A stretch of 64,000 bases of DNA. It comes from an uncultured virus (IMG/VR IMGVR_UViG_3300049259_000212) (Duplodnaviria; Heunggongvirae; Uroviricota; Caudoviricetes). The notes under the pieces were generated by a model. The model ran no database searches, had not been told where the DNA came from, and worked only from the letters and a program-made list of their open reading frames with translations. Location of the stretch: IMG/VR virus record IMGVR_UViG_3300049259_000212; one strand, given 5' to 3'. This document shows positions 1 through 18,406 of the stretch, piece by piece (the first letter of the stretch is position 1; every line of letters begins with the position of its first letter). Made by a program: the position numbers and the translations under genes.

Positions 1-402
1 CGTCTGCGGGCGACCCGTGATCTGCGCCGACTGCGTCGGGAGGATCGGAACGCCCGTCGACATCGGGAGGATGTCGCGGTTCGCCTGCGTCGGCATCGGC
101 GCGTCGACGATCATCGCGCGGGGAGGGAACGGGTGCGGCCACGCCGGACCCTGCGGCGCGAGCTGCGGCGCCGCGAACTGCGGAACCGGGGGCGCCACGT
201 TCACGTTGACGTTCGGCGCCGGAGCGACGATCGGTGCGCCAGTGTTCGGATCCTGGCCGATCACCATGCCGTTGCCGCCGCCGAAGCCGCGCTGCGCGCC
301 CCAGCCACGCTGGAAGCCCTGCGGTGCCTGGACGATGTCGTACCAGCCCGCGAGAAGCGCCTGCACCTGCTGCTGATTGTAGTTCGGGTAACCGTATGCC
401 AT
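1..402 (-). CDS. Partial CDS running off the window edge: Gly/Pro/Gln-rich N-terminus followed by the start of the repeated beta-rich domain; candidate major structural protein
   Basis: Hand-translated from ATG at 402: MAYGYPNYNQQQVQALLAGWYD...ILPMSTGVPILPTQSAQITGRPQT; open to position 1; absent from the ORF track because it has no stop in the window. Confidence 0.75.
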   Translation of the reverse strand, partial: MAYGYPNYNQQQVQALLAGWYDIVQAPQGFQRGWGAQRGFGGGNGMVIGQDPNTGAPIVAPAPNVNVNVAPPVPQFAAPQLAPQGPAWPHPFPPRAMIVDAPMPTQANRDILPMSTGVPILPTQSAQITGRPQT

Positions 403-479
403 ATCGACCTTTCGCGACGAAGCTGTCGCTGGTGCGGACGCTTGTGCGCCGCAGTTAAAGAAACCGGGAGGTGCCTTCG

Positions 480-607
480 AACCTCGCGCTCGAGGTCGGC
501 TGATCGTGAAATCGTCTAACCTCGCGCTTGAGGTGTCGACGGTCTCTCGGTCGAGCCCTCACTCGTCGTCTCATGACGACGAGCCAGGGCCAGATCGTGA
601 GATCTGG
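480..607 (-). promoter_or_regulatory. Structured intergenic leader with two near-identical palindromes and several hairpins
   Basis: aacctcgcgctcgaggt (480-496) and aacctcgcgcttgaggt (518-534); hairpins ctcgtcgtc-tcat-gacgacgag (562-583) and ccagatc-gtga-gatctgg (590-607). Confidence 0.5.
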
Positions 608-617
608 TTGTCAGGTA

Positions 618-1148
618 TCAGTACGTGGGCGCTTGCGCCGCGGCCTGCATGCGCTGAACGATCGCAGCCATCTGCGCCGGATCGAGATCGCCATTGATGG
701 CCGGAGGCGGCGCGGACGGCGCCGGAACAGACCAACCATTGCTGCCGTAGGGCTGCGTCCACGGATGGCCGCCACCGCCGAACAGCTTGCCGGTATCCGC
801 CCAGCGCTTGCCGAACGAGTAGCCGGTGGCAGCAAGGTAGCTGCCCACGAAGCCGTTGCCGATGTTGTTCAGGTGCTCGCTGTATACCGGACCCGCGAGA
901 TCGAGGTGACCCGCGACGAGCAGAAGAGCGCCAATGCCGAGGTTGATCGGCACGGGGCCGAGCGACGCGCCATTGGTCTTGCCTTCGAGAGCGCCGCCGA
1001 TGAACGCACCCGCACCGTGCTCGATCGTGCTGACCGCGCGCTGCGTGATGCTACCGAACTTGTCGCGAAGGCCGTCGAGCTTACGCATCGTCGCGTGATG
1101 CTTGCGCGCCATGTGGTGCAGGTGCTCTTCGGTGATGTTGACGGCCAT
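618..1148 (-). CDS. Gly-rich hydrophobic (membrane-like) protein, paralogue of 1289-1729
   Basis: MAVNITEEHLHHMARKHHATM...; aligns nearly end to end with the next ORF; RBS-like aagga upstream of ATG 1148. Confidence 0.85.
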   Translation of the reverse strand: MAVNITEEHLHHMARKHHATMRKLDGLRDKFGSITQRAVSTIEHGAGAFIGGALEGKTNGASLGPVPINLGIGALLLVAGHLDLAGPVYSEHLNNIGNGFVGSYLAATGYSFGKRWADTGKLFGGGGHPWTQPYGSNGWSVPAPSAPPPAINGDLDPAQMAAIVQRMQAAAQAPTY

Positions 1149-1288
1149 GTGTCTATGTCCTTGCGTAGAGAAAGGGACCTGTGGAAACGGGGCTCCCAAC
1201 CAGGAGCGCTTTCTGATCGCGCAGAGCCCGATCGAGGGCTGCTCGAGACGGGCTACAACGCGGTTGCGTCGCTAGGGTCGATGAACGA

Positions 1289-1729
1289 CTAGGGAGCCGA
1301 CGGGGGCGGCGCGACCGGCCAACCGTTCTCGTACGGCGCCTTCCACGGGTGGCCACCGCCACCGAGGATCTTGCCCGTCTCCTGCCAGCGCTTACCGAAC
1401 GCGTAGCCAGTGGCCGCGAGGTAAGAGCCGATGAAGCCGTTGCCGAGGTTGTTGAGGTGCTCGCTGTACTCGGAACCTGCAAGGTCCAAGTGCGCAGCGG
1501 CGAGCATCAGAGCACCCGCGCCGAGGTTGAGTGGCACGGGGCCGAGGGAGGCGCCGCCCGTGCGACCTTCGATCGCGCCGCCGAGCCAGGCAGCGACGCC
1601 TGTCTCGATCGTGCCGATCGAACGTTGCGTGATGCCAGCGAACTTCGACCGCAGACCGTCGAGCTTCTGCATCGTCGCGTGGTGACGGCGGGCCATGTGA
1701 TGGAGATGTTCTTCGGTGATATGGGCCAT
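1289..1729 (-). CDS. Gly-rich hydrophobic (membrane-like) protein, paralogue of 618-1148
   Basis: MAHITEEHLHHMARRHHATM...GNGFIGSYLAATGYAFGKRW; conserved against its tandem paralogue. Confidence 0.85.
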   Translation of the reverse strand: MAHITEEHLHHMARRHHATMQKLDGLRSKFAGITQRSIGTIETGVAAWLGGAIEGRTGGASLGPVPLNLGAGALMLAAAHLDLAGSEYSEHLNNLGNGFIGSYLAATGYAFGKRWQETGKILGGGGHPWKAPYENGWPVAPPPSAP

Positions 1730-1794
1730 GGTTCTGATCCTCTAAGGCCCGTCCGAGGACTACTCGGTACGGGCCGCGTGCGGGGGTGGAGTAA

Positions 1795-2082
1795 CTAACC
1801 GTTGCGGTTATCGACTTCGACTTTAGGTTGGACAGCCATCGCTTCGAGCTGTGCAAGCACGATGCGACCTTCGTCCGTCAGGCGGACGCGCTGATGCTCG
1901 CCGGGACGTTGGATGATCTGGACGAGGTTCTTCGCGGCAGTTGCCTTCACGTTGGCAATGCCTTCAGGGGTCTCGGGCATCGCGTACTCGCCGGCTGTTT
2001 TCATGAGCAGCGACAGCAACTGGATGTCGAACTTGGTGAGTCCGACCTTCTTGAGGTGAAGGCGATCAATCTTGCTGTTCAT
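1795..2082 (-). CDS. Hypothetical protein (possible winged helix)
   Basis: MNSKIDRL...VRLTDEGR ending typical of wHTH; overlaps the stop of the upstream ORF. Confidence 0.6.
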   Translation of the reverse strand: MNSKIDRLHLKKVGLTKFDIQLLSLLMKTAGEYAMPETPEGIANVKATAAKNLVQIIQRPGEHQRVRLTDEGRIVLAQLEAMAVQPKVEVDNRNG

Positions 2083-2450
2083 GGCGCCTTCTCCAGTGCA
2101 CGGAGGATCTCGACTGCGAATTCGCGGGTGGCACATTCGGTGCGGGCCACGCGACCATCAGTCACGACGTAGAGCGTCTTGCCGGACGCCGGGTCGACCG
2201 ACTCCATGATGTAGAAGTGCGGCTTCTTGGCGAGGCCAGTGCTCGTGGAGGTGGCAGCCTTGGGTGCCTTGGCCTGCGGCTCAGCAGCCGGGGCGGGATC
2301 TGTATCGATGATCTCCCGGCGCTTGCTGCGACGGGTCTTGTGATCGGCTTCGAGACGCTGCTTTCGGTTTAGGACCTGGTCAACCGTGTCGACGGAATTG
2401 TCGAGCCAGTCAAACAGGCGGTTGATACCGCGCATCGTGTCGTCACCCAC
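2079..2450 (-). CDS. Hypothetical protein
   Basis: 123-aa ORF in the same minus-strand run; start uncertain. Confidence 0.6.
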   Translation of the reverse strand: MGDDTMRGINRLFDWLDNSVDTVDQVLNRKQRLEADHKTRRSKRREIIDTDPAPAAEPQAKAPKAATSTSTGLAKKPHFYIMESVDPASGKTLYVVTDGRVARTECATREFAVEILRALEKAP

Positions 2451-3144
2451 GGCAACGGATGTATCCGATTCGAAAAGTTTTTTAGAGAACTGGTCTACGC
2501 TTCACTATTTGGATAAGCTTGCGACAGTGTCACGAGCAGCATCTCCAGGTATTGCAAAACAAGGATTTACGGTTGGAAAGCCGGTACAAAACTCAGGGCT
2601 TCGCGACCCCAAAAAATCGACAGTGCCTCCCTTTACAGCCGACGAACCTATAGCGCTTAAGGTCGATACGACCGGATGGATTACTCGAAACGCGGCTGCT
2701 GATCTAATGCGTGTGTCTGTTACGACCATCGCAAACTACGAAAGGCGCGGGAAACTACACCCGCAAATGGCGTGGCGCGCGGATGCCCGAGGGATCCAGC
2801 ATCACGTTGCGGTCTACAGCACGGACGAACTCTTCAAAGAGTTACCGCGAGGTGCGGATCGCCCTGTCCAACAAGACCCAGGTGAACTCGCTGCTCGGGC
2901 GTTCGAACATTTCGACAACGGTTTGAGCATGCGCGAAGTTGTGATCAAGCTGCGAGCAACTCCAGGAGCTGTTCAAGAGCTGCGAGAGAGCTGGCTCGAG
3001 ACAGGGGGCCACACGTTGACAATCACGCCAGAGGCCCAAAAGAAGTTTGCGGCGCTTGTGGGAGAGTTTTCAGGCGTGACCGAGCTCTTGGAAAAAGTCG
3101 AAGCACGCCTGAGTGTCAGTGCGTGCTCAAACAACCATGGCTAA
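2386..3144 (+). CDS. HTH DNA-binding protein (MerR/excisionase-like HTH plus second HTH)
   Basis: ITRNAAADLMRVSVTTIANYERRGKL and GLSMREVVIKLRATPGAV; start uncertain. Confidence 0.6.
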   Translation: MSTELSSQSNRRLIPRIVSSPTATDVSDSKSFLENWSTLHYLDKLATVSRAASPGIAKQGFTVGKPVQNSGLRDPKKSTVPPFTADEPIALKVDTTGWITRNAAADLMRVSVTTIANYERRGKLHPQMAWRADARGIQHHVAVYSTDELFKELPRGADRPVQQDPGELAARAFEHFDNGLSMREVVIKLRATPGAVQELRESWLETGGHTLTITPEAQKKFAALVGEFSGVTELLEKVEARLSVSACSNNHG

Positions 3145-3949
3145 GAAACGCTTTTCCAAAACGGCAGCGCTGATCGCTGAGCAGCGCGCCTGTGCGCGGG
3201 GAGCCAATCTCGAAGGCCATCTTCGCCAATCGGAAAGACCGTGCTGGAACTGTCTTCCCTGCGCTTGGTCGTATACAGCTGACGAACTTGTCTCGATGAT
3301 TGCGCAGTCTAGGCAAGTCGAACGCGATAAATACCTGCGGTCGAAGTATGGCGTATCGCAAGACACGTTCGACAGGCTGCTTGCAGCGCAAGGAAACGGC
3401 TGCGCTTGTTGTTATACGAAAACGCCCGGGACTCATGGCTGGCATGTCGATCACGACCATCGTACAAACCTCATCCGAGGAATTCTTTGCGGCAACTGCA
3501 ACACCGGCATCGGAATGTTGGGTGACGATCTCGTGGGTGTCGAAAGGGCTGTAGCGTATCTACAGAGGCATCACGAACGAGGTGGTCTGAAACGTGATAT
3601 GCGAAGTCCACTTCGCACGTTCGATCCAAAGATCAGCGCTGTGATGAAAACGGGGTTTTCGCTTTTAGATAAACAGCTCCCTGCATCAAGGCTCGTGTCC
3701 ATTTTGAGGATCGAGCCTCACCACGCTGCCGATCTAGTGGAGACGTGGAAGAAGCGTCGTAGTGTTCACGAAGCTCCTCCCGAGCACAGCCTGATTCTTT
3801 TGAAGGATCGCCCATACATATTCGGTTGCGGCTGCGTGTGCGGTGAAGTGTCGAGGTATTGCAGTCAAGACGACCCGGATACCGCGAAAATGCATCTGAA
3901 CGAAGTGAACGAGCACGTTGCAACGATGGGTACTCAAGCACCCATGTGA
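3137..3949 (+). CDS. Endonuclease VII-domain protein (His-Me finger, homing-endonuclease-like)
   Basis: YLRSKYGV...AQGNGCACC...HVDHDH...IRGILCGNCNTGIGMLGDD. Confidence 0.85.
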   Translation: MAKKRFSKTAALIAEQRACARGANLEGHLRQSERPCWNCLPCAWSYTADELVSMIAQSRQVERDKYLRSKYGVSQDTFDRLLAAQGNGCACCYTKTPGTHGWHVDHDHRTNLIRGILCGNCNTGIGMLGDDLVGVERAVAYLQRHHERGGLKRDMRSPLRTFDPKISAVMKTGFSLLDKQLPASRLVSILRIEPHHAADLVETWKKRRSVHEAPPEHSLILLKDRPYIFGCGCVCGEVSRYCSQDDPDTAKMHLNEVNEHVATMGTQAPM

Positions 3950-4059
3950 TTTCAGAACAAGCTGAGTAAAACGGAGCCGGGTACTTCGCTACTCAGCCAT
4001 GAATCATCAAGAGTTTACGGCAACGCGAACTCGGCATGCGGGGTGCTCTATCCCTCGTC

Positions 4060-4707
4060 ATGTTCAAGCGCCGCTCCACCCGCCGCACCGCCACTGCCGA
4101 CAAGTCCGCCACCACGGACATCGTCACCCAGCTCCAAGTCGCGTTCCGCCGCCCGGAAGCAACGCTCATCGGCGCGCTCGTGGGCGGGCTCGTCCCGTGG
4201 TTCGCGCGTACGCTCGCGCACGATCAGCTCCCCGCGGCGTGGTCGCGCGGAAACTCGACCCTCGCGGGCGTGATGCTTGCCGTCGTGCTCGGTTGCGCGC
4301 TCTTCTCGGCGATCACAGTCTACAAGTTCGGCCGCGCAACGTTCAACGACACGCGCAAGGCGCTCGGCTTCGTGCTCGCGATCGAAGGCGTCATGCTCGT
4401 GTCAAACGGTGCGACCAGCAACGTAGCGCTGTTCGTCCTCATCCTCATCAACGCGCTCGCGAACGGTTCGTCCATTGCTCTCGCGCGTGACGCGACGTGC
4501 AAGCGCCAGGAAGCGGATGCTCGCCGCGCGGCCACGCGCGCGAAGCGCTCGGCGCCCAAGGCTCCGGCCATTCCGTTCGAGGATAAGACCGCTCGCGCTC
4601 CCCGCGCGCCGAAGGCACCGGCCCACAAGGCTCCGGTGGTTCCGGTGTGGACGGATCTCGACATCGACGACGCGGAGATCATCTCCGAGCAGAAGTACCT
4701 GGCGTAA
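4060..4707 (+). CDS. Multi-pass membrane protein
   Basis: Several hydrophobic segments followed by a basic Ala/Pro-rich tail. Confidence 0.75.
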   Translation: MFKRRSTRRTATADKSATTDIVTQLQVAFRRPEATLIGALVGGLVPWFARTLAHDQLPAAWSRGNSTLAGVMLAVVLGCALFSAITVYKFGRATFNDTRKALGFVLAIEGVMLVSNGATSNVALFVLILINALANGSSIALARDATCKRQEADARRAATRAKRSAPKAPAIPFEDKTARAPRAPKAPAHKAPVVPVWTDLDIDDAEIISEQKYLA

Positions 4708-4717
4708 GGTAAGCGAC

Positions 4718-5083
4718 ATGTCGAAGTGGCATCTCCAGATCGAACCGGGAACGTGGGTGCTTTGGGGGTACGGCCCGGCAAGCAAAGTCGTTCACGTCGA
4801 TCGCGACAAGATCGAACTCGGCTACGGAATAAAGGTTCCGTTCACGCTTCCCGAGCCGAGTGGCCGCTTGGTCCCGCAAGAGTACGAGCGCCGGAAGGGT
4901 TTCGGCTGGAGGTTCAACACAGCGAATGAATCCGCAGGTCACAGCTGGCACTTCGCCGAAACCATCGAAGAGGCTGTCCAGGCGGCGACCGAGAATGTTG
5001 AGGCCCAGCAGTTCGATACCCAAGAGCTGTTCCGTCCTGCACTAAAGGACGTCCGAATCGGTCCGAAACGCGCCAGGAAGTGA
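4718..5083 (+). CDS. Hypothetical protein
   Basis: MSKWHLQIEPG...; operon-like spacing. Confidence 0.6.
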   Translation: MSKWHLQIEPGTWVLWGYGPASKVVHVDRDKIELGYGIKVPFTLPEPSGRLVPQEYERRKGFGWRFNTANESAGHSWHFAETIEEAVQAATENVEAQQFDTQELFRPALKDVRIGPKRARK

Positions 5084-5087
5084 ATCC

Positions 5088-5345
5088 ATGGAGACCACGC
5101 TAAGGCTCTCGTCCGAACAGATCGAAACGTTCCTTCGTCACCTGCATCACAGAGCAATGATTCGCGCGGAGAACACACTCAAGACATCCATCGTGATGGC
5201 GTGGGAGCACTTCGCGCCGGACGAGCAAGCAGCGCGAGAACGGACGATTCTGCGTGACCGCCAGGCCTATGACACCACGATCAAGAAAGCAGATGGCAAC
5301 CTTCAACAACGTCTTGCAGACCACGCGGCACGGATGGGACGGTAG
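5088..5345 (+). CDS. Hypothetical protein
   Basis: 85-aa ORF with operon-like spacing. Confidence 0.55.
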   Translation: METTLRLSSEQIETFLRHLHHRAMIRAENTLKTSIVMAWEHFAPDEQAARERTILRDRQAYDTTIKKADGNLQQRLADHAARMGR

Positions 5346-5349
5346 CGCC

Positions 5350-5859
5350 ATGGCCACGAAGCTGACAAAGAACCAAGAGGCTTTCCTTCGCGATCTTGGT
5401 GTCGGGCGCGAAGTCTCGTTGACGTTCGCTCAACGGGCCATGGTCGGCGTGCTTCGTCGCAAGGGTCTAATCCACACGCGGTCACTTGTTGGAAAGACGA
5501 ACGTGTGGGCACAGCCGACAGATGAAGGGCACATCCTCCTTCGTTTGACGGCTGCGAACCGCGCACGAAGCCACGCTACGGTGAAGACACCGGCTCAGCT
5601 CGATCGAGAGATCGCGGAATCCCTTTGCAAAGAGGGACGTCTCACAGCGGATACGATAACGGACGAGCAGATTCGCGAGCTGCGAGCCTATGAGCATAAG
5701 CTCGCCAGCACATCCACGGGTGTCGCGCGCGTCATCGCGCAAACCGCCGTCGCGGACGCCGACCTGGCGCTTTCTGGCCGCGGCGTCGCGAATGCGCGTA
5801 AGCGGAAAGCCCGCGCCCGCTGCGCCCAGATCCTCAATGCGCGCTCGAAAAGCGTTTGA
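5350..5859 (+). CDS. AQLDREI-motif protein
   Basis: Internal SHATVKTPAQLDREIAESL. Confidence 0.75.
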   Translation: MATKLTKNQEAFLRDLGVGREVSLTFAQRAMVGVLRRKGLIHTRSLVGKTNVWAQPTDEGHILLRLTAANRARSHATVKTPAQLDREIAESLCKEGRLTADTITDEQIRELRAYEHKLASTSTGVARVIAQTAVADADLALSGRGVANARKRKARARCAQILNARSKSV

Positions 5860-5871
5860 AAGACCAAGACC

Positions 5872-6423
5872 ATGACTAAGATCTCCGCACAGCTTGATCG
5901 CGAAATCGCCGAAGCCCTCGCGAACTACTCCAGCGACAAGCGTCCGCTCTACGGACACACGAGCGAAGCCACGGCGTACCTCGTGGACGACTACCCGTAC
6001 GGATACAACGTGCGCACGTCGATCCGGTACTGGCTGGAGCACAAGGCGAACAAGGGCTGGCGGTTCGTCTCGCAAACGCTCAACCCCAAGACGGGCCGGT
6101 GGAACAAGCCGAAAGCCTCGACGTACAGCGACTGGGGCGGCGCAATGTACATTGACGGCAAGGGTCACGTGCAGTGGGACGGTATCGGCCCCTACACGGA
6201 CGAGGCGAAGATCCTCGCGTTCGTCGAGACGTTCCCGGGCGCGGACATGCGTGAGTTGAAGAAGGTCGTGCCGGCGAAGAAGAAGCTGCTCAGCAAGCTG
6301 TTGAGCGGCGAGGCGTACTTCACGGTCAACAACCAGCGCCAAGCTCGGTCGGAAGCGGACAACGAGCGCAATAGCCGCGAGATGGATGTGTGGAACACCA
6401 TCGGAGATCGGATCGGCGCGTAG
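5872..6423 (+). CDS. AQLDREI-motif protein
   Basis: N-terminal MTKISAQLDREIAEAL followed by an aromatic-rich domain (DDYPYGY). Confidence 0.8.
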   Translation: MTKISAQLDREIAEALANYSSDKRPLYGHTSEATAYLVDDYPYGYNVRTSIRYWLEHKANKGWRFVSQTLNPKTGRWNKPKASTYSDWGGAMYIDGKGHVQWDGIGPYTDEAKILAFVETFPGADMRELKKVVPAKKKLLSKLLSGEAYFTVNNQRQARSEADNERNSREMDVWNTIGDRIGA

Positions 6424-6461
6424 TTGGCTGCGAGACTGCCTCTCACGTACTGTCGGACATC

Positions 6462-6752
6462 ATGACGAACCCCAAGCAACTCGACGCTGACATCGCACGA
6501 GCGCTTTCGAGTCACCGCGGTCTCAAGCTGTCCAACAACCAAAAGGACATGCTTCGGGCGGCTCTCGACACTGGCAGGATGTCGAGCGGGCGATACGGTT
6601 GGAACGAGATGCACGTGCGTGCGCTCGAAAAGAAGGGGCTCGTCTCACTCGTCTCCTCGGCCACCTGGGACAAGACATGGAAGCTGACGGATCTCGGCAG
6701 TGAGGTAGCGAAGTTATTGCACGCCGAATGGCTCAGCGCACATGGCGACTGA
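6462..6752 (+). CDS. AQLDREI-motif protein with wHTH-like domain
   Basis: MTNPKQLDADIARAL...ALEKKGLV...WKLTDLG. Confidence 0.7.
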   Translation: MTNPKQLDADIARALSSHRGLKLSNNQKDMLRAALDTGRMSSGRYGWNEMHVRALEKKGLVSLVSSATWDKTWKLTDLGSEVAKLLHAEWLSAHGD

Positions 6753-6796
6753 GTAGGAAGTCGCGTTCGGCACGCGACGGCTGTAAGCTCTCCCGC

Positions 6797-7456
6797 ATGA
6801 AACGCGTCTATTCATTCGCGGAAGAGGGTAAGTGGACCTCGGGGGCCGACTCCACGATGCTCATGGGCGAGTGGCAGGCCTGGGTCGACGGCGACGGTCA
6901 TTGGAAGGTCCGCGGTCCCGATCGCGACAACGAAGCACACTACGCGGACTGCGACATCGAGTTGACTGCGGCCGAAGATGAGGAGGCCGGCAATTCGGCA
7001 GCGCGTCGCAAGATCCGCGCGCGACGTGCGAAGGAAACGGCACGGGCGTACATCAAGTCGATGCTGCGATCTGCGCCGTCGAGACATGCGCGCGAGAAAT
7101 CGCCGGCTCAGCTTCAACGAGAGATCGATGAGGTCCTCCGCAAGCCCCGCCGCACGCACTCGACGATTTCAACGTCGTCTGCGTACGAGCAAGCGAAAGC
7201 CGAATCGGAGCGCTTGGACAAGGAAGCATCGGAAGCGGGCGAGGCGTTGCGGGCGTTCCCGCGCGGGCCCACAGGGATCACTCCTGACTCTATTCGCGCG
7301 ACACCCGCGTTCCGCGAAGCAAAGGCCCGCTACGACAAAGCATTCGCAAAGCAGCGTGCTTTCAACGGTCCTTTCGTGAAGCGGTTCGCGAAAGAGCTTC
7401 GCGAAGAGCGTCGTCTCCGCGATCAAGCACGGCAGCGTCGATCACCGGCAACTTGA
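6797..7456 (+). CDS. AQLDREI-motif protein
   Basis: Internal RHAREKSPAQLQREIDEVL. Confidence 0.75.
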   Translation: MKRVYSFAEEGKWTSGADSTMLMGEWQAWVDGDGHWKVRGPDRDNEAHYADCDIELTAAEDEEAGNSAARRKIRARRAKETARAYIKSMLRSAPSRHAREKSPAQLQREIDEVLRKPRRTHSTISTSSAYEQAKAESERLDKEASEAGEALRAFPRGPTGITPDSIRATPAFREAKARYDKAFAKQRAFNGPFVKRFAKELREERRLRDQARQRRSPAT

Positions 7457-7487
7457 CCCCTGCGGTCGGCGGCGCGATGCTCGGCGC

Positions 7488-8081: not shown

Positions 8082-8171
8082 GGAGCTCTCCGCGTGTAGT
8101 GCTGGAGCTCTCCGCAGTGCAGCACTGACGATAGCTAGCGAACGGTTATACGCTTGTGCGAGCATCCCCCA

Positions 8172-8705: not shown

Positions 8706-8784
8706 GGGACCGGGATCTGCACACCCAGCGTCGGTAGCGGTTCATCGATTTTCGAGCTTCCAGCGGGTGTTAAAACGGCAGGAC

Positions 8785-9882
8785 ATGCAGACCGCTCACG
8801 CCAGTCACCCGCCCCTCCTCATGACCCTCTCGCTCGGTGCCGATCAGCCCAATCGGATTGCGCCGAAGAAGCCAACGAAGATCGTCGTGCATGCGAACGA
8901 GGCGTTCGACATTCACAGTCTTCGTATCTCAAGCAAGGGAACGCCGGGCGGCGCCGCGGACTGGATCGTCAATGACATCCTTGTCGATGACCAATCCCAG
9001 CTTCGTCACAAGGATCTGCCCGGGTGGTTGTTCGGTATCGGCATGGGCAACGCGCCACGATCCGTGTCGAGCTTCTCATTTGACGGTCTTGACGTGGTCG
9101 AGCAAGGTCACGAGTTCGCTATCGTCGTGACGTACGTCGGTCCCAACCCGGAGGGCGTGCCTTTCTTCGGCGCCGTGCTGGGCTACCGGCCGTACGAGCG
9201 TCCGATGCAGCTGCCGATCATCTCGAAGGAGAAATTCATGGGCGCTGACATGCGCATCATCAGCGCGCGCCTTCACACGGCATTTCGTATGGAGCGCCTC
9301 GAGATCGACCAAGCGACTGATTGGGTTGTCTGCGATCTCAAAATGAATGGACGATCGCAGTTCGCTCAGTCGGGAGACGTGCCCGGCGACGTGTTCGGGA
9401 CCGATGCGATCGACAACTTCGTCTCGTTCGAGACGTGCCTCGCCGGCAATGCGATCGACATCATCGTGATGTACATCGGCAAGAGTCCTGAAGGTGCGAT
9501 CTTCAGTGCACGCTATGAGGGCTCGGTCGTTTCGCTCGACGCGCAGAATCCGCCCGAGCTCAAAGCCATCGTGGAGGGCGAGACGATCGTGGGAACGCAG
9601 TCGCCCCGCCGCCGCTCGCAATCCGAAGGCAACACCGTGAAGGCTTGGCGTCCGACGGATCTCAAGTCCGTCGATCTCGTCGAGCAGTGCTCGACGATGC
9701 TCGTGAGCACCAAGCTCCAGCACCAGCCGGGAACCGTGATCGAGGCCCGCCTCATGAGCCCGCCCGACGCGCGCATGGATCGTGTGGTGGGGTTCTTCGT
9801 GGTCGCCCCCGACGGAAAGCGCGCGGCCATCGCCGCGGAGTCCGTCGAGACGTTGATGCAGTTGGACAAGATCGCTCCCTAG
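8785..9882 (+). CDS. Protein with two copies of the beta-rich repeated domain
   Basis: ADWIVNDILV...DLPG...VTYVGPNPEG and TDWVVCDLKMNGRSQFAQSGDVPG...VMYIGKSPEG. Confidence 0.8.
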   Translation: MQTAHASHPPLLMTLSLGADQPNRIAPKKPTKIVVHANEAFDIHSLRISSKGTPGGAADWIVNDILVDDQSQLRHKDLPGWLFGIGMGNAPRSVSSFSFDGLDVVEQGHEFAIVVTYVGPNPEGVPFFGAVLGYRPYERPMQLPIISKEKFMGADMRIISARLHTAFRMERLEIDQATDWVVCDLKMNGRSQFAQSGDVPGDVFGTDAIDNFVSFETCLAGNAIDIIVMYIGKSPEGAIFSARYEGSVVSLDAQNPPELKAIVEGETIVGTQSPRRRSQSEGNTVKAWRPTDLKSVDLVEQCSTMLVSTKLQHQPGTVIEARLMSPPDARMDRVVGFFVVAPDGKRAAIAAESVETLMQLDKIAP

Positions 9883-10394: not shown

Positions 10395-10478
10395 CCACTC
10401 ATAGTCTGTCGGTCCTCGAAAAACGGCGAGTTTTCGACCACTGGTGAAACGTGAGGATCGTCAGCTACGATGCTGACT

Positions 10479-12277: not shown

Positions 12278-12439
12278 ATGTCGTGTAAATGCGCTGGTAA
12301 GGCCTCTGTCAATGTCTCTTGTCGCGCGACGTGCAAGCGTCGTTGCCCCACCATCCGCCGCTGCAAGTTCAAGGCAGCCAAGTGGACCTGCCCGTGGAGC
12401 CCCTGCGCGGGCGCCAACGTCCTCACCTGCTGCCGCTAA
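12278..12439 (+). CDS. Small basic Cys-rich peptide (53 aa, 10 Cys)
   Basis: MSCKCAGKASVNVSCRATCKRRCPTIRRCKFKAAKWTCPWSPCAGANVLTCCR. Confidence 0.6.
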   Translation: MSCKCAGKASVNVSCRATCKRRCPTIRRCKFKAAKWTCPWSPCAGANVLTCCR

Positions 12440-12449
12440 GTCGCTAGTC

Positions 12450-12615
12450 GCCCACGAGGCGACATAGGGCTACCACGCGACAGCGTGCGCATGATGCGCG
12501 TGCTCGGAAGTCCGTGTTGCCCGACGGCGAACAGCTGTCTGGACATTCACATACGCCAAAGCCCGGTCGGTAAGACCGGGCTCTGACGCGGCCACCGTTG
12601 GATGACCTCGTGGGC
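12450..12615. ncRNA. Candidate structured non-coding RNA
   Basis: Closing stem gcccacgagg/cctcgtgggc, second stem cgcgacag/ctgacgcg, internal hairpins including agcccggtc-ggtaa-gaccgggct. Confidence 0.45.
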
Positions 12616-12680
12616 TACGCCCGCTGAGACATTACCACGGAGGTTGTAACGCGGAGGTGCGAACACCTACCGCGGCGTAC

Positions 12681-12800
12681 TCATTTGTCGTTTTCGTTGC
12701 TGCACTTGCGCTGCGCAGCCTCTCTGCGCGCGTAGTGTACGCCGATGAGCGTCATCACGACGCCGACGATCGCCAACAGGATCAGGAACACGTGATTCAT
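12681..12800 (-). CDS. Small single-TM peptide (39 aa)
   Basis: MNHVFLILLAIVGVVMTLIGVHYARRE...; hand-translated. Confidence 0.45.
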   Translation of the reverse strand: MNHVFLILLAIVGVVMTLIGVHYARREAAQRKCSNENDK

Positions 12801-12859
12801 TCGGCAAGCCCCTTCGCGATAAATTCGCGACGCGCGATCGACGGTGTTAGCGTGATCGC

Positions 12860-13015
12860 ATGGCTCAATTCTACTCCGCGTTCTCCTGTAACTCCTGCTG
12901 CGCTGCCGTGAACACGGACCGCGTGAGCGTCACCGTGTGCTGCGAGTCGACGCAGCCGTGCTGCATCAATGGTCGTGCGCGCAAGCGCGGCCGTTGCTGC
13001 AAGGCCAAGAAGTAA
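12860..13015 (+). CDS. Small basic Cys-rich peptide (51 aa, 9 Cys, four CC pairs)
   Basis: Hand-translated MAQFYSAFSCNSCCAAVNTDRVSVTVCCESTQPCCINGRARKRGRCCKAKK. Confidence 0.6.
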   Translation: MAQFYSAFSCNSCCAAVNTDRVSVTVCCESTQPCCINGRARKRGRCCKAKK

Positions 13016-13060
13016 CGCGATGTCGCGCGGGCATCGCCCGCTGAGGTAGTCTGAGCCTTC

Positions 13061-13357
13061 ATGGCGAACGACTGCACTGTCGCGAAGTACCTCGAAGTCC
13101 TCGCGCATGAGTTCGTTCGTGAGGACATGCGGCAAAGCGCGAGAGAGTCCAAGCGCGGACGCCCCACCATTTACCGTATGGGCCTTCTGGTGGAGGCACT
13201 TCATAGGGTGCGCGAGGCCGTTGGCAGCCGCACCTCTGGCGACGAGGCTGACAAGGCTGGCTTTCGCATGGCCATGTACCAGAACTTCGAGAAGGACTTC
13301 ACCCCGGTCAAGAAGGTTGTGAAGCAGCTCGACGCAGGCACTTGCAAAATCAAGTAG
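13061..13357 (+). CDS. Hypothetical protein
   Basis: 98-aa ORF with strongly GC3-biased codons. Confidence 0.65.
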   Translation: MANDCTVAKYLEVLAHEFVREDMRQSARESKRGRPTIYRMGLLVEALHRVREAVGSRTSGDEADKAGFRMAMYQNFEKDFTPVKKVVKQLDAGTCKIK

Positions 13358-13385
13358 TCACACGTTCGCCGTAGTAGGATGCGGC

Positions 13386-14180
13386 ATGGCTTCGGCGCAG
13401 GACATTCGCGAGTTCAAGGGTTTTCTTCGACAGGCTTCCGATCGTCAGGTGCAAGGCATCTACGACAAGGAGAGCCGGGCCGGACGTGACGAGTACGCGG
13501 AGCTTACTGTCGAAGAAGCTGAGCGCCGCGGTATTGATCTCGAGCGACACGGCCATGCGCGCAAGAAAAGTTCCGCGCAGCTTGATCGCGAGATTACTCA
13601 AGCGTTGAGCAAGCCGGGTGGCCGAGTACACGCGGCGAAATCGACTTCGAATGGCTCGATGACGATTGGCAACGGTCAATATCGTGTGCTCGTCGCTAAA
13701 GATCCTCATCGCGGAGGCTATTCGGCGAAGCTGATCAGCTCGGGCATCGGAACGATCATGGAGCCGAATGGCACGTCCGCTGCTAAGGCTCTGTCTCGAC
13801 TCGTCAAAGAATTGACTCAGTCTGGAGGCGACGATCGGAAGCTCGCGAAGGAAATCGTCGCGAAGAGCGGGGGTATTTCTCACGCGACAGCAAAGCGCGC
13901 TGTGCCGGGCATTTCCAAGTGGGACACGTTCGCTGGCGGTACGAGCGCCGCACCGGGAAAGTACAGCTACAGCATCAGCGTTCCTGAAGGGAAATACTAC
14001 ATCTCCCCATTCACGCGAGGAGGTGGTCGTCATGCAGGCTACTACCTCAAGTTCGCGACCAATGGAAACGGGCGTCCGCGCGGCGCTCATTCCGGCCTTT
14101 GGCACGAGCTGGGAATTCAGCGCAGCCCCGCGAACGCTGCGAATGCGGCGGCGAAGCACTACGCGAAGGGCTTCGAGTGA
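13386..14180 (+). CDS. AQLDREI-motif multi-module protein
   Basis: GHARKKSSAQLDREITQAL plus VHAAKS and SHATAK linkers. Confidence 0.8.
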   Translation: MASAQDIREFKGFLRQASDRQVQGIYDKESRAGRDEYAELTVEEAERRGIDLERHGHARKKSSAQLDREITQALSKPGGRVHAAKSTSNGSMTIGNGQYRVLVAKDPHRGGYSAKLISSGIGTIMEPNGTSAAKALSRLVKELTQSGGDDRKLAKEIVAKSGGISHATAKRAVPGISKWDTFAGGTSAAPGKYSYSISVPEGKYYISPFTRGGGRHAGYYLKFATNGNGRPRGAHSGLWHELGIQRSPANAANAAAKHYAKGFE

Positions 14181-14422
14181 GAATCGTCCTCTCCGGCAAC
14201 GCGCCGATCGAAGTCTTTCCTTTCGTCGACGCGCTCCATCGCGAGGTGATCATTCGTCACGAGGACAACACCTCGGAGGACATCGAGATGACGCTCGATG
14301 AAGCCGAGCGCGTCGCACAGACGATTCTGCAAGCGGTCGCTGTGGCACGTACCACCGTCGTGCCGATCGATGACGTGAACGCTGTGGCGGAGCTGATCGA
14401 CGCGGCGACAAAGGACATCTAG
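14177..14422 (+). CDS. Hypothetical protein
   Basis: GTG start overlapping the upstream TGA. Confidence 0.55.
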   Translation: MRIVLSGNAPIEVFPFVDALHREVIIRHEDNTSEDIEMTLDEAERVAQTILQAVAVARTTVVPIDDVNAVAELIDAATKDI

Positions 14423-14424
14423 CC

Positions 14425-15336
14425 GTGCCTGGACCCTACTTCATACCCGACGTGTCCTCATGGCAGGGCAACGCGCCCAACTTCGCAGCCATCGCAGCGG
14501 ATCCGCGAATGGTCGGCTGCATCATCAAGTCGTCGCAGGGCCTCGGACCTGGGGTGTCGCCGCAGAACGGCCACTCGCTGACGTGGTTCAAAGATAACTG
14601 GACCCGTATCCTCGCAGCAGCGGGAGCGCGCTACGGATTGGAGTTTTTCCGCGGCGCGTATCACTTCGGAACGCCCACCGCGACGGGTGCTGCGCAAGCG
14701 GACTACATGTTGTTGACGGTAGAGAGCGCGGGTGGTTGGCGCAATGGCGATCTTCCACCTGCCTGGGACCTCGAAGGCGCAACGTGGAGCTCGGCACAGC
14801 AGATCATCGACGTGTCTTCGCAGTTCGCCGAGCGTATCAAGCAGCAGCTCGGCAAGGCGCCCATCCTCTACACGGGCGCGACCTGGAGAAAGTTCGGGCT
14901 GCGCACGCGGGCGGGTTTCGGCGCACTTTGGACGACGCATCTCGACGTCATGGTTCCGTTCGGATGGCCGAACACAGATGTTGTGCTGCATCAGTACGGC
15001 GACGGTAAGTACTACGATCCGCAGGGTCAGCCCGCGCGGTTGATGTATCCGACGGGTGTTCTCGGGTTCGGGACGAACCTCGACATGAACGTAGTGATGG
15101 ATGGCGGACGGCCAGCGACATCGATCGACCGCGTGCGCACTGTGCTCACGGGGCAGGGCGGATCACTGTTCGAGCCATCGTATGAGCCCGCGCCCGGAGG
15201 ATTCTTCTCAAGGACCGTGAACGAAGTGAAGCGCGACGTGAAGGGGCTCTCGACACCCGTACTCGTCGGAGCAGGACTCGGAGCACTCGCGCTGATCGCG
15301 ATTATTGCGAGTTCGGGACGGGACGACACGTACTAG
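14425..15336 (+). CDS. GH25 muramidase (lysozyme) with C-terminal transmembrane anchor
   Basis: DVSSWQG, IIKSSQG, GAYHF, DLE, PILYT, HQY, LDMN; tail VLVGAGLGALALIAIIA. Confidence 0.85.
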   Translation: MPGPYFIPDVSSWQGNAPNFAAIAADPRMVGCIIKSSQGLGPGVSPQNGHSLTWFKDNWTRILAAAGARYGLEFFRGAYHFGTPTATGAAQADYMLLTVESAGGWRNGDLPPAWDLEGATWSSAQQIIDVSSQFAERIKQQLGKAPILYTGATWRKFGLRTRAGFGALWTTHLDVMVPFGWPNTDVVLHQYGDGKYYDPQGQPARLMYPTGVLGFGTNLDMNVVMDGGRPATSIDRVRTVLTGQGGSLFEPSYEPAPGGFFSRTVNEVKRDVKGLSTPVLVGAGLGALALIAIIASSGRDDTY

Positions 15337-15608
15337 TGGCTGTTCACGACGATAACGATCTGATCGTGCAGGCGCATCGCCGGAGTATTCGCCATCGCGA
15401 CGAGCTTGCACGGAGCACCCTCTGCGGCTGCTTCTACTGCCTGAAGACGTTCCCCTTCATCATCATTCATCAGTGGACCGACAACGACGCCACCGCGATT
15501 TGTCCTCGCTGCGGAATGGACAGCGTGATCGGGGACGCTTCCGCTTCCGGGTTTTCAATCGGCGATGCGTTTCTTGGAGCGATGCGGCCTACTGATTTGA
15601 GCGCTTGA
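15336..15608 (+). CDS. Small zinc-binding protein
   Basis: CGCFYC...AICPRCGMDSVIGD. Confidence 0.7.
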   Translation: MAVHDDNDLIVQAHRRSIRHRDELARSTLCGCFYCLKTFPFIIIHQWTDNDATAICPRCGMDSVIGDASASGFSIGDAFLGAMRPTDLSA

Positions 15609-15615
15609 TCAGCGC

Positions 15616-15990
15616 CTAGCGGCGGAGTGACGCGAGGATCACAGCCGGATCTTCACTGCGCGCCCTCCGCAACTCGGGATGATCACGGAGATCGAGAGCG
15701 TTGTCGTACTGCGCGATCGTCTCCTCGACAGCGTTTCCGCCGCCTTCGATACGGGCATGACTCGCGTACCAGTTGTTCACATCGATCTCATGCGTTTGGT
15801 AGTTGTAAGCGCCCTCGAAACGCGCGCCGCACGAGCAATCGATGATGGAGCTGCGATTTCCGGGACCATCCATGAGCGTCCGCTTGAGACGCGGTGAGTG
15901 GTAAGGCGTCCGCTTGTCCTCGGGCACTGGACCTGAAGGCTGCGCGACGTTGCTGACGCGAATATCGTTGATGACCCAATCGTTGCTCAC
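15616..15990 (-). CDS. Hypothetical protein starting with a fragment of the beta-rich repeat
   Basis: SNDWVINDIRVSNVAQ matches the DW.VNDI.V...Q element of the repeat. Confidence 0.5.
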   Translation of the reverse strand: MSNDWVINDIRVSNVAQPSGPVPEDKRTPYHSPRLKRTLMDGPGNRSSIIDCSCGARFEGAYNYQTHEIDVNNWYASHARIEGGGNAVEETIAQYDNALDLRDHPELRRARSEDPAVILASLRR

Positions 15991-16011
15991 CTGGGGATCC
16001 TAGCAAATTTG

Positions 16012-16086
16012 TACCGACGCTCGGACTCGAACCGAGACTGGATGCGGTCTAAACGCACTGCCACTACCAAATTGGGCTACGTCGGC
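16012..16086 (-). tRNA. tRNA-Leu(TAG), short variable arm
   Basis: Acceptor GCCGACG/CGTCGGT, anticodon loop TTTAGAC, T-loop TTCGAGT. Confidence 0.85.
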
Positions 16087-16095
16087 AAGAACAGA

Positions 16096-16647
16096 TCACT
16101 GCCCGTGATGATCGACAGGCTTGTACTCCTTCTTCGCCATCTTCGCGGCGAGCTCCTCGAACGAAACAGGGGCGTGCTTCCAGCAGTCCACACCGACGTC
16201 TGCTTGGAGCAAGTACGGTTCTTCTTTGAGAGATCCGTGCGAGTGACCGTGCAGCTGCCACGCGCCGCGATGACTCTGGTTCCAGACACGCATCGCGTAG
16301 TGCAAGAGAACGATGCGCTGCGATCCAACGGAGATGCCGGCCATGTCCTTCGCCCAGATCCAGTGCTCAAGGAAGCTCTTGTCCTTGCGCAATGCTTTAT
16401 CGTGGTTTCCAAACACGAGGTACTTCTGTCCCGCGAGGCGCTTCACGATCTTCGTCGCGTGCTCGCTGTCGCAGAGCGCGAAGTCTCCGAGGTGATATAC
16501 GCTGTCGCCTGGCTTCACGCGTTCGTTCCAGCCGCGGACGAGCTTCTCGTTCATCTCGTTCACGTCGGCGAATGGACGATCGCTGTACTTGATGACGTTT
16601 GTATGACCGAAGTGAGTATCGGCCGTGAACCAGACCTGGTGCGCCAT
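16096..16647 (-). CDS. Calcineurin-like metallophosphoesterase
   Basis: FTADTHFGH, LGDF, GNHD, HGHSH. Confidence 0.9.
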   Translation of the reverse strand: MAHQVWFTADTHFGHTNVIKYSDRPFADVNEMNEKLVRGWNERVKPGDSVYHLGDFALCDSEHATKIVKRLAGQKYLVFGNHDKALRKDKSFLEHWIWAKDMAGISVGSQRIVLLHYAMRVWNQSHRGAWQLHGHSHGSLKEEPYLLQADVGVDCWKHAPVSFEELAAKMAKKEYKPVDHHGQ

Positions 16648-16660
16648 GGTGTTCCTTTCG

Positions 16661-16735
16661 TATCGCGAGCGAGGATCGAACTCGCACTGAACGGTCCCTC
16701 AGACCGCCGCCTCTACCAAATTGGGCTATCGCGAC
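16661..16735 (-). tRNA. tRNA-Leu(GAG), short variable arm
   Basis: Acceptor GTCGCGA/TCGCGAT, anticodon loop CTGAGGG, T-loop TTCGATC. Confidence 0.85.
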
Positions 16736-16738
16736 TCA

Positions 16739-16810
16739 TACCGACGACGCGACTTGCACGCGCACTGAACGCTTTTTGAAAGCGCTGCCTCTACATTGGG
16801 CTACGTCGGC
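16739..16810 (-). tRNA. tRNA-Leu(CAA), short variable arm, G55 T-loop
   Basis: Acceptor GCCGACG/CGTCGGT, anticodon loop TTCAAAA, T-loop TGCAAGT. Confidence 0.8.
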
Positions 16811-17149
16811 TCAAAACATGCTGCGAGCTGCACTTGCCTACAGGCACAAGTGCAGCGAGCGAAGTCGAACGAGTAGTCGGAACGAGCGCATCGGTGAGAT
16901 CCACATGTAGCGCGACAGCGAGTGGCAGTCAATAAGGTCGAGATCTGCTCATCTTGCAGCGGCCTGCCGACCACGATATCATCGTTCTCGGTACCTACTC
17001 GGGATGCCAGATTTCCTCTCGACCAACCGCACCTTGGTCGCCTACGGAGACGAAGGGGTTGACCCGCCGAGACAACGCTCTTCATTTCTCTCTGCTCGGA
17101 CGAGCATGTCGGTGCGGGATTGCTCGGACGAGTCATCGAGAGGTTTGTC

Positions 17150-18406
17150 ATGAGCGTCAAGAAACGTGATCGTGCGATGCAGCGCGAGGTGCGCGAGCGT
17201 CAGGGGAAGACGGGCGAGAGTTACCAAGCGGCGTACCAGCAGCTGAATCCTTTGCCCAAACAGACGGAGACACTACTTCCGCACACGTGGCGCGAGACGT
17301 CGCGCCCCCTTCATCGACATCCACTTCCCATGAGCAGTGGCCAAAAGGTCTCGCCAGGACAAATTGCAAGGATCACCGCTCGTGTGCAGAGCTTGTCGTC
17401 ATTCTGGCCTGATCGACTACTGATCCATCATGCGGATCGTTGGGACGTTCGTCGTCTTTCTGTAGGCCACAGCAAGGGCCCCTGGTCATCGCTGATCGAA
17501 GACGAGAATCAACGCCGTGTGGCCTCCGTGTTCTCACTCGATACGTGGCACCCCCTGATTCAGCGCGAAGTTCCCTCGTCGGAATCGATCGTTATGGATG
17601 TTACCTACAAAGGTACAAACGATCAGGGTGAGCGGTTCGAGGCCGTTTTGTTCGGCTGGGACGGTCAGCCTCCACCCAACGAGCCCATGCCCTCCAAACC
17701 GGAATTCGCCAACCGCGTCTCGATGCGGACAGAGTCTAAGCGCGTTGTACGCGGTGACATGATCGTCCTTCCGATAACGATCGAACTCGCGGCTCTCTTC
17801 GTGGATCGATTCGCTATCGCGGAGGCAGAGCTCTGGAAGGTGCACGACATCCGAACGCACGGCAAAACGATTTTTCTCCAAGGCGGTGATTTGCCCGGAG
17901 AGATGTTCACGGACGATGCGTCGATCATCTTGAAGCCCTTGGTGGCTGGTGATCGCGTCGACATCGCTGCGACGTATCTCGGCGAGGAAGACACTGCGAC
18001 GCTGATCGTCGAGCTGTCGGGTGTCACGACACCTCCGAAGGAAGAGCGTGCCATCAGCTACTTCTTGCCAATGACCGCGGATCTGCGGCTGCTTCCATTG
18101 CAGAGCGCTGAGATCAAAGCAGAGTCTTCACGTCCCTTCGTCGTCGAAAGACTCGTGATCAGTCATCCGCACGAGTGGACGATTAACGACCTAAAAATCG
18201 GAAATCGCAGCCAACTTCTCCAGAGCGGTGATATTCCAGCCCTCACGTTTTCAAAGCAGGCCATCGGCTGCGATCTTACGCTCGAGAGCGTTCCATCACG
18301 AGTGAACCTTGTGATCATTGCAACGTACGACGAAGCTGGCGACAAAGAAGGCGCGTCCTTCTGGTGTGGAGCGCAGGGTCGCTGCGCCCCGGAATCCGTT
18401 ACCTGA
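17150..18406 (+). CDS. Protein with three copies of the beta-rich repeated domain
   Basis: LPMSSGQKVSPGQIARITAR..., LWKVHDIR...LQGGDLPGEMF..., LPMTADLRLLPLQSAEI...EWTINDLKIGNRSQLLQSGDIP; N-terminal REVRERQGKTGESYQAA. Confidence 0.8.
   Translation: MSVKKRDRAMQREVRERQGKTGESYQAAYQQLNPLPKQTETLLPHTWRETSRPLHRHPLPMSSGQKVSPGQIARITARVQSLSSFWPDRLLIHHADRWDVRRLSVGHSKGPWSSLIEDENQRRVASVFSLDTWHPLIQREVPSSESIVMDVTYKGTNDQGERFEAVLFGWDGQPPPNEPMPSKPEFANRVSMRTESKRVVRGDMIVLPITIELAALFVDRFAIAEAELWKVHDIRTHGKTIFLQGGDLPGEMFTDDASIILKPLVAGDRVDIAATYLGEEDTATLIVELSGVTTPPKEERAISYFLPMTADLRLLPLQSAEIKAESSRPFVVERLVISHPHEWTINDLKIGNRSQLLQSGDIPALTFSKQAIGCDLTLESVPSRVNLVIIATYDEAGDKEGASFWCGAQGRCAPESVT

Follow-up and report, generated by a model that had tools for sequence, protein, structure and literature searches.

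Jelly-roll genes of the window

The window, as the whole stretch of 64,000 nucleotides analyzed here is called, belongs to an uncultured virus catalogued as IMG/VR record IMGVR_UViG_3300049259_000212 (Caudoviricetes). Its G+C content is about 60%, and its contig measures at least 160 kb, of which these 64 kb are visible; in the protein collection, gene D sits on a contig of 160,197 bp. Among sequencing runs, the stretch occurs in one soil metagenome, which may be where it came from, and no RNA run containing it was listed. As seen in Table 1, three genes termed A, B, and D carry copies of a repeated domain, with a structured RNA leader in front of D and a RadA/Sms-like ATPase gene farther downstream. 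Judged by sequence, A, B, and D are members of an undescribed, phage-restricted family of a jelly-roll domain of about 115 amino acids (aa). The family is restricted to huge metagenomic contigs.

Table 1. Features of the window, followed by hairpin-bearing proteins on other sequences
Feature	Position (nt)	Strand	Description
A	1-402	-	N-terminal 134 residues of an A-type protein; the rest lies beyond the window edge
Gly-rich paralogues	1289-1729, 618-1199	-	Directly upstream of A, same strand
Multi-pass membrane protein	4036-4707	+	Basic Pro/Ala/Lys tail; hydropathy >1.6 between residues 72 and 132
QLD-motif open reading frames	5197-5856, 5860-6420, 6375-6749, 6704-7453, 13323-14177	+	
QLD-motif open reading frames	53416-54030, 54034-54681, 54690-55520	-	
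B	8767-9882	+	371 aa; two jelly-roll copies, about nt 8845-9189 and 9208-9531
GH25 lysozyme	14425-15336	+	Hydrophobic C-terminal segment, residues ~274-298, hydropathy 2.3
Jelly-roll-like piece	15937-15987	-	17 residues (DWVINDIRV...), start of open reading frame 15616-15990
tRNA genes (23)	16011-16810	-	3 tRNA-Leu
	59027-63320	+	20-gene cluster
Structured RNA leader	16984-17149	+	Ends at the D start codon; nhmmer, covariation
D	17150-18406	+	418 aa; basic helical hairpin (nt 17150-17248) and three jelly rolls
D rolls JR1, JR2, JR3	17306-17662, 17714-18025, 18044-18388	+	Profile model and AlphaFold2
HerA/FtsK-superfamily ATPase	21204-23138	+	644 aa; P-loop domain N-terminal; 3 kb downstream of D
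Family A DNA polymerase	36717-39947	+	Interrupted by an intein with a LAGLIDADG domain
VapE-like primase/helicase pair	47342-49528, 49482-50216	+	Adjacent; profile matches
RadA/Sms-like ATPase	57261-58241	+	CxxC...CxxC zinc ribbon, RecA-like core with GKNRFG
TROVE (Ro60-like) gene	63389-64000	+	Cut by the window end
Hairpin + two B-type rolls			L010, L012, L013, L014, L017, L019
Hairpin + three rolls			D type
Hairpin + five rolls, D then B			L003, L004, P0035
Hairpin + ATPase + three or five rolls			P0018, P0022, P0026, P0029, P0055, L016 (981 aa)
Hairpin on unrelated proteins	L001 9821-10969; L020 1657-2895; L021 2-910; L022 303-1586; L023 9980-10507		

A hidden Markov model (HMM) built from 387 domain instances was run on the six-frame translation of the whole window. 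In A, the first 30 or so residues of one domain copy were recognized (independent E-value, i-E, 2.2e-10; model positions 4-35); the domain runs from nt 93 to nt 1 and follows a Pro/Ala/Gly/Gln-rich arm with the motif QALLAGWYDIVQ. The two copies of B, which is extended at its C-terminus by about 100 aa, scored 6.1e-27 and 3.5e-32, and the three copies of D scored 1.2e-26, 4.3e-13 (a partial match), and 1.6e-36. The short minus-strand piece upstream of D reached an i-E of 0.011 (model positions 47-63) and a BLASTP match to D with E 0.003 over 23 residues, and may be a relic or a chance resemblance. No match better than E 0.99 was given by any other frame of the window. The original prediction had assigned the repeat to four genes. 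The three copies in D, the two in B, and the domain start at the truncated end of A are all recovered by the HMM and place three genes far beyond chance, while the fourth is marginal. The description of B and D as concatenated, diverged copies of the domain in A is likewise borne out by the HMM and by BLASTP of B against D (8767-9882 against 17120-18406; E 1.8e-13 and 5.1e-10), and the consensus string first proposed for the repeat is close to the consensus of the A-type domain.

Two other statements about the surroundings of this domain were not supported. A structured leader had been ascribed to the A protein, whereas its closest full-length relative begins with about 110 Pro/Gly/Ala/Gln-rich residues with no predicted secondary structure, and its predicted local distance difference test score (pLDDT) is below 50 for residues 1-54. 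The Gly-rich paralogues beside A had been regarded as membrane proteins, and their best 19-residue hydropathy values of 1.3 and 1.7 are borderline only. These paralogues are 73% identical over 139 aa and found no family match in the Pfam, PHROG, and NCBIfam scans. In the ESM Atlas, the A-type domain and one Gly-rich paralogue retrieved unnamed viral clusters only.

With the 134 visible residues of A, 109 longer proteins (236-420 aa) were retrieved, each ending in a complete domain of about 125 aa; their contigs reach 501,972 bp. Across 61 aligned A-type proteins, the median pairwise identity of this C-terminal domain is 0.95, compared to a mean of 0.57 in the D family. The N-terminal arms, 117-208 aa long and composed of 17% Pro, 13% Gly, 11% Ala, and 10% Gln, align poorly (0.41). 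One or more copies of the motif W-x-D-h-h-[GQS], which reads GWYDIVQ in the window, are present in 50 of the 61 arms, and none of the arms has a collagen-like run (longest G-x-y run 7, median 3). Several A-type proteins agree in the length of their longest contig (for example 338,818, 342,163, 427,943, and 443,266 bp), and the sizes 338,818, 342,163, and 461,400 bp are held in common with D-type or B-type genes. From these common sizes, the proteins are read as A-type paralogues on one contig. The combination of a nearly invariant fold, hypervariable arms, and several copies would fit interchangeable subunits of one assembly.

None of A, B, and D corresponds to a Pfam, NCBIfam, or PHROG model, and for B nothing relevant was returned by the family models even at E 10. 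Clustered at 90%, the relatives of D number 64, with contigs reaching 359,440 bp, and those of B number 430 cluster representatives at E<=1e-3 (phmmer). When 73 B relatives were scanned with Pfam, 72 had no family and one (P0077) contained the KaiC-type ATPase domain PF06745. No relative of D, of the A-type domain, or of the window DNA was found among GenBank phages, and the IMG/VR copy searched held no jelly-roll relative, giving a helix-only match (L001). Among 185,579 species genomes, no relative of the A-type domain was found, and D gave a helix-only match in one Myxococcota metagenome-assembled genome (MAG), in which the query used revealed no jelly-roll relative. The related loci are from JGI metagenomes, on contigs of up to 461,400 bp. 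A Pfam family could be given to 15 of the 77 neighbouring proteins in these loci, with no particle family among the 15, and a PHROG was lacking for 53 of 55; the named neighbours include RF-1, peptidyl-tRNA hydrolase, RNA ligase, and HNH genes.

As Table 1 also displays, the hairpin KKRDRALQRRVRERQAKTGESYQAAW opens proteins with varying numbers of rolls. In the 981-aa protein of L016, the helix, the ATPase, and five rolls follow one another in order, and L002 has a D-type gene immediately preceded by a B-type gene. When longer fusion partners were sought with roll 3 of D, none scored, a weak negative since the 981-aa protein exists. Conservation of the hairpin codons is 0.75 at the third position, against 0.93 at the first and 0.91 at the second; the third position is the most variable, and therefore the hairpin is conserved at the protein level. 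The same hairpin, RERQxKTGESYxxAR, also heads unrelated proteins without a leader on an IMG/VR contig, on soil contigs, and in the Myxococcota MAG. The basic hairpin is a mobile N-terminal module. Two relatives show rearranged genes. In L007 (9698-10813), the D-type frame breaks off after roll 2 and closes with a DAEIVSEQKFLS tail, as is typical for members of the membrane-protein family, so that two genes may have been joined here by a deletion; in L003, jelly-roll fragments lie in three overlapping frames (8826-9361) between its two intact genes.

Predicted fold of D and packing of its rolls

The AlphaFold2 model of D, made with an alignment of 36 relatives, has a pLDDT of 91.0 and a predicted TM-score (pTM) of 0.82. 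It begins with two helices (residues 2-32), which a disordered linker connects to three sandwiches at residues ~56-170, 189-292, and 303-412. The jelly-roll fold that had been proposed for the repeat unit is indicated alike by this model, by Foldseek, and by the structure scans. Foldseek of D against the PDB gave 35 matches at E<=1e-3 with low whole-chain TM-scores (0.14-0.35). Its leading match was a single-chain C1q head (E 1.3e-6), and the next were iridovirus, PBCV-1, and PRD1 coats and PHM.

In a Foldseek-independent structure scan of 48,161 chains (VIA-align), the top match of D was the major capsid protein (MCP) of STIV, 2bbd_A, with Z 9.3 and a root-mean-square deviation (rmsd) of 4.2 Å over 209 residues of model positions 187-418. 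Among the listed matches aligning at least 180 residues, 20 of 21 were double-jelly-roll proteins, namely viral double-jelly-roll coat or scaffold proteins, PHM/DBH, PNGase F, and DUF2961-type enzymes; the lone other was BcsB, with an rmsd of 15.6 Å. Of these proteins, 8ic8, dopamine beta-hydroxylase, and the Orf virus scaffold protein are ones that we take to fall within the double-jelly-roll classes. The classes matched by D are the four double-jelly-roll protein classes defined in PMC8812541. A second comparison gave Z 10.3 for PHM, 9.3 and 9.1 for STIV, and 8.0 each for PRD1 and PM2. Rolls 2 and 3 of D are therefore predicted to pack as a double jelly roll. This goes beyond the original prediction, which had proposed the fold of the single repeat, and adds the arrangement seen in the STIV, PRD1, and PM2 coats.

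The D alignment of 36 sequences has 32 invariant columns, and His, Cys, and Met stand in no invariant or nearly invariant column. A fold search with the A-type model returned generic jelly-roll sandwiches only (Z 5.5-7.8). The complex prediction of D (52-418) with B (26-272) and the A-type domain as partner scored 0.00, below the mark, and speaks neither for nor against binding.

ATPase partner, leader RNA, and genomic setting

The RadA/Sms-like ATPase of the window matches TIGR00416 with E 2.1e-64 over positions 62-279 of 454 (218 bits against a cut-off of 403) and PF06745 with E 5.7e-15, and it ends after the RecA-like core without the Lon-like domain. Because the TIGR00416 match is partial and below the cut-off and the Lon-like domain is absent, the protein is called RadA-like rather than RadA. 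In an all-against-all frame comparison, the window frame 57258-58238 was 55% identical over 214 aa to the ATPase part of the L016 protein, and the ATPase inside the fusion protein P0026 matched TIGR00416 with E 4.8e-39. PF06745 was detected in 5 of the 64 D relatives as well as in P0077. By these sequence matches, the window ATPase is the stand-alone form of the ATPase inserted between helix and rolls in relatives. The strongest functional clue at hand is that some relatives carry D, B, and the ATPase as a single polypeptide. Like RadA/Sms, the window protein combines a RecA-like core bearing GKNRFG with a CxxC...CxxC ribbon. Unlike RadA/Sms, it has no Lon-protease-like domain; in the fused relatives the jelly-roll array is found there, and the basic hairpin replaces the zinc ribbon. 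This suggests that the jelly-roll array stands in the position of the RadA Lon-like ring.

The leader of D was found once in the window (nhmmer, 16984-17155, E 7e-45). A copy precedes each helix-jelly-roll gene in the related loci (20 copies in 18 loci, E 1e-15 to 1e-52), and these roughly 170 bases are conserved even where the jelly rolls of the lineages are only about 30% identical. The consensus structure has 37 pairs, with 98.2% of cells paired as opposed to 34-48% when the partners are slid, and 7 compensatory pairs were observed compared to 2.6 +/- 1.0 in shuffles (0 of 500 reached 7). In the outer helix, the 5' end pairs with CGAGA, which is part of the GAGAGG ribosome-binding site region. 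Rfam gave no match at E<=1 for 16850-17200, and the window matches at gathering score were tRNAs only. The leader RNA probably controls translation of D. That its regulator could be the arginine-rich hairpin of D itself is a guess.

Homologues of the multi-pass membrane protein with the basic tail (53-63% identity) lie 1-5 kb from the helix-jelly-roll gene in L009, L010, L012, and L014, and by this synteny alone the protein would belong to the jelly-roll system. A homologue of the minus-strand frame 54034-54681 adjoins the helix-jelly-roll gene in L010, L012, and L013.

The remaining genes describe the element as a whole. Profile scans of the window identified a family A DNA polymerase with an intein, SNF2, Dda-like, and VapE-type helicase/primase genes, Pam3 gp33/34-like proteins, endonuclease VII, and HNH nucleases, and further genes encode a phosphoglucomutase, a TROVE protein, and a GH25 lysozyme. 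The polymerase part is 44% identical to the polymerases of Pseudomonas siphophages such as ZC01 and PaMx11, and no close polymerase relatives were present in the IMG/VR copy searched. The C-terminal hydropathy of the lysozyme identifies it as membrane-anchored. The HerA/FtsK-superfamily ATPase matches DUF87 (E 3.5e-6), HerA (E 3.9e-11), and phrog_2666 (E 4.5e-15), being the sole window protein with a match to a "head and packaging" PHROG. In the PDB and in NCBIfam it matches HerA helicases, CedD, and TraD, and at its length it is closer to HerA helicases than to the short A32-type ATPases. Families of HK97 capsid, portal, sheath, and tail proteins had no match among the window proteins scanned (64 with Pfam, 70 with PHROGs) or among the neighbours of relatives (77 with Pfam, 55 with PHROGs), the exceptions being a weak "tail protein" match (E 2.4e-5) and the phrog_2666 match. 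The element is a large phage-like genome whose particle type is unreadable from the 64-kb window.

Several additional observations were made in the window. The second gene of the VapE-like pair is a shorter copy of the VapE domain in the first. The three tRNA-Leu genes flank a phosphoesterase gene just upstream of D, and the other 20 tRNA genes are clustered near the window end. The T-loop consensus GGTTCRANYCC has 12 matches, none of them next to A, B, or D, and all in tRNA genes except at 41542 and 61170. These two, both exact, are outside the ARAGORN tRNA calls (41542-41552, minus strand; 61170-61180, plus strand), and the latter, located where the tRNA cluster has a gap, may be what is left of a decayed tRNA. 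A TROVE copy with 76% identity is found 6 kb from the helix-jelly-roll gene of L010. Near one end of 8 otherwise dissimilar open reading frames, the motif (S/T)xxQLD(R/A)EIxxxL is present; the homologues of 54034-54681 in L010, L012, and L013 bear it at the opposite end, and it may be a shared docking or sorting tag.

Possible roles of the jelly-roll proteins

The explanation that we favour, with about an even chance of being right, is that A, B, and D are non-enzymatic jelly-roll structural proteins of a huge soil phage-like element, which assemble mutually and with a RadA-like hexameric ATPase. The non-enzymatic part is favoured because His, Cys, and Met are not conserved anywhere in the D alignment. 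In this scheme, A, B, and D would self-assemble, and D, B, and the RadA/Sms-like ATPase would be pieces of one unit, since relatives encode helix-ATPase-three rolls, helix-five rolls, and helix-ATPase-five rolls as single chains. The jelly-roll array, in the place of the Lon-like ring, could serve as the anchor or oligomeriser of a hexameric DNA motor, and the basic hairpin would contact nucleic acid. The folded leader would occlude the ribosome-binding site and so check the translation of D. The A-type proteins would be abundant lattice subunits whose paralogues differ only in the flexible arm. Any place of A, B, and D in the virion is one that we infer.

Several points weigh against this explanation. 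The genes of A, B, and D are scattered among lysis, tRNA, repair, and metabolic genes instead of forming a morphogenesis operon. The B gene of the window has neither the basic hairpin nor the leader RNA, and the occurrence of the hairpin on unrelated leaderless proteins (L001, L020-L023) leaves autoregulation only a guess. A RadA-like partner could mean recombination and not a structural role. On the side of the models, the double-jelly-roll call is a predicted domain arrangement, and many unrelated models already reach Z 7-8 with this aligner, which the values of 8-10 exceed only slightly. Roll 1 of D is not packed on roll 2 in the same manner, as the matches over 52-295 have an rmsd of 12-14 Å, and the AlphaFold2 model of a full-length A-type relative is poor (pLDDT 58.5).

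The proteins could instead form the shell of a particle, and the element would then be a very large tailless membrane virus, with A as a single-jelly-roll major coat protein, D and B as capsomer or vertex proteins, and the RadA-like ATPase or the HerA-like ATPase as the packaging motor at a special vertex. We regard this as unlikely. It is encouraged by the model of D, in which the double jelly roll of rolls 2 and 3 finds its best solved matches among the coats of STIV, PRD1, and PM2. Compared to the double-jelly-roll MCPs of Bamfordvirae (STIV B345, 2bbd; PRD1 P3, 1w8x; PM2 P2, 2vvf), two rolls of D have the same predicted mutual orientation, with residues 187-418 aligned to PRD1 at 5.0 Å over 210 residues and to PM2 at 5.0 Å over 202 (Z 8.0 in both cases). 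A single-roll paralogue (A, from a nearly invariant family) and an ATPase of the FtsK/HerA class, 3 kb downstream of D, are encoded nearby and would be candidates for the single-jelly-roll penton protein and the packaging ATPase that accompany such MCPs. The conserved membrane protein with a basic tail in synteny with the jelly-roll genes, the membrane anchor of the GH25 lysozyme, the near absence of HK97 capsid, portal, sheath, and tail families from the scanned window and neighbour proteins, and the lack of a relative in the IMG/VR copy searched point in the same direction. There are also differences from the known MCPs. There is no sequence similarity to them; the rolls here are still alike in sequence and number 1, 2, 3, or 5 per chain; D has an extra first roll and a basic hairpin; and several A-type paralogues per contig, as well as the fusion of D and B with a RadA-like ATPase in relatives, would be unusual in a coat protein. 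The STIV turret protein (4ind) also has three jelly rolls in one polypeptide, but one roll superposes (Z 6.1-6.2, about 100 residues) and the three-roll arrangement differs. The same fold is found in cellular enzymes, according to PMC8812541, and the 644-aa HerA-like protein resembles HerA helicases more than short A32-type ATPases. Contigs of 160-500 kb with 23 tRNA genes are like those of known tailed huge phages, and the types of polymerase, helicase, and primase as well as the Pam3 gp33/34-like genes are those of tailed phages, which likewise sets the element apart from Bamfordvirae. A tailed-phage structural block could lie outside the visible 64 kb. To our knowledge, every described phage above 200 kb is tailed.

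If the element is a tailed huge phage, the jelly-roll proteins may be accessory virion parts such as cement, turrets, or hair-like fibres, with the A-type proteins built like BclA or C1q, in which a docking motif at the N-terminus would be followed by a flexible spacer and a jelly-roll head; this, too, is doubtful in our estimation. The replication genes agree with such a phage, and the A-type layout of W-x-D-h-h-[GQS] motif, low-complexity spacer, and conserved C-terminal roll has the same order as BclA of the Bacillus exosporium and C1q/TNF proteins. The best Foldseek match of D is a C1q head, the BFVD matches include a phage "C1q domain-containing protein", minor tail proteins, and a "BclA C-terminal domain" protein, and single domains match the HFTV1 turret, the KHP40 cement protein, and a phage tail fibre (Z 5.6-6.1). 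Unlike BclA and C1q, the arms lack collagen G-x-y repeats, and the rolls of D cannot be superposed on the C1q trimer (5hkj/5hzf; TM 0.21-0.23, rmsd 15 Å). Moreover, the A-type domain is 95% conserved while receptor-binding heads usually diversify, and fusion to a RadA-like ATPase is ill-suited to a fibre or cement protein. A non-structural role appears still less probable, whether as carbohydrate-binding or catalytic double-jelly-roll proteins or as subunits of a recombination helicase on intracellular replicating DNA. It would explain the RadA/Sms-like fusion partner, which belongs to a recombination helicase family, the endonuclease VII and helicase genes nearby, and the structural likeness to PHM, which has the highest Z and the same predicted two-roll fold (6ala_A, 4.4 Å over 203 residues). 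GH172/DUF2961 proteins and PNGase F also align over both rolls with Z 6.4-8.1 (4kq7, Z 7.6-7.9; 1pgs, Z 6.6). The copper ligands of PHM are His and Met, and the D alignment conserves neither of them, nor Cys. No Pfam or NCBIfam enzyme family was matched, for B even at E 10, and the sequences have no signal peptide-like N-terminus. An invariant A-type domain with hypervariable arms is not an enzyme pattern. The family is found on phage-like contigs only, with none in the 185,579 species genomes, whereas PHM/DBH, PNGase F, and DUF2961 are grouped as cellular double-jelly-roll proteins in PMC8812541.

Apart from the question of role, the D-B-ATPase fusions, the A-type domain of 95% identity with its variable arms, and the conserved structured RNA leader are new here, and in a limited literature search no paper combining double jelly rolls with huge, jumbo, or mega-phages was found. 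The family exists in huge, almost wholly unannotated soil phage-like elements, and gene fusion links it to a DNA motor of RadA-like type, as does its position to a structured RNA leader that is undescribed. According to PMC8812541, one of the two great DNA virus lineages has double-jelly-roll proteins as its hallmark, and their origin from single rolls is debated. Rolls that are alike in sequence, occur 1, 2, 3, or 5 to a chain, and in one predicted pair are packed as a double jelly roll would offer a living series for study. Should these proteins form the shell of a huge (160-500 kb) tailless membrane virus of soil bacteria, with an A-type coat, young double-jelly-roll capsomer or vertex parts, and a tethered RadA-like motor, which we hold to be improbable, the jelly-roll viruses of prokaryotes would become about tenfold larger in genome, these would be by far the largest of them, and the step from single to double jelly roll would be seen in progress. 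If they are not the shell, huge phages would have in them a new class of accessory proteins that serve as lattices or anchors.

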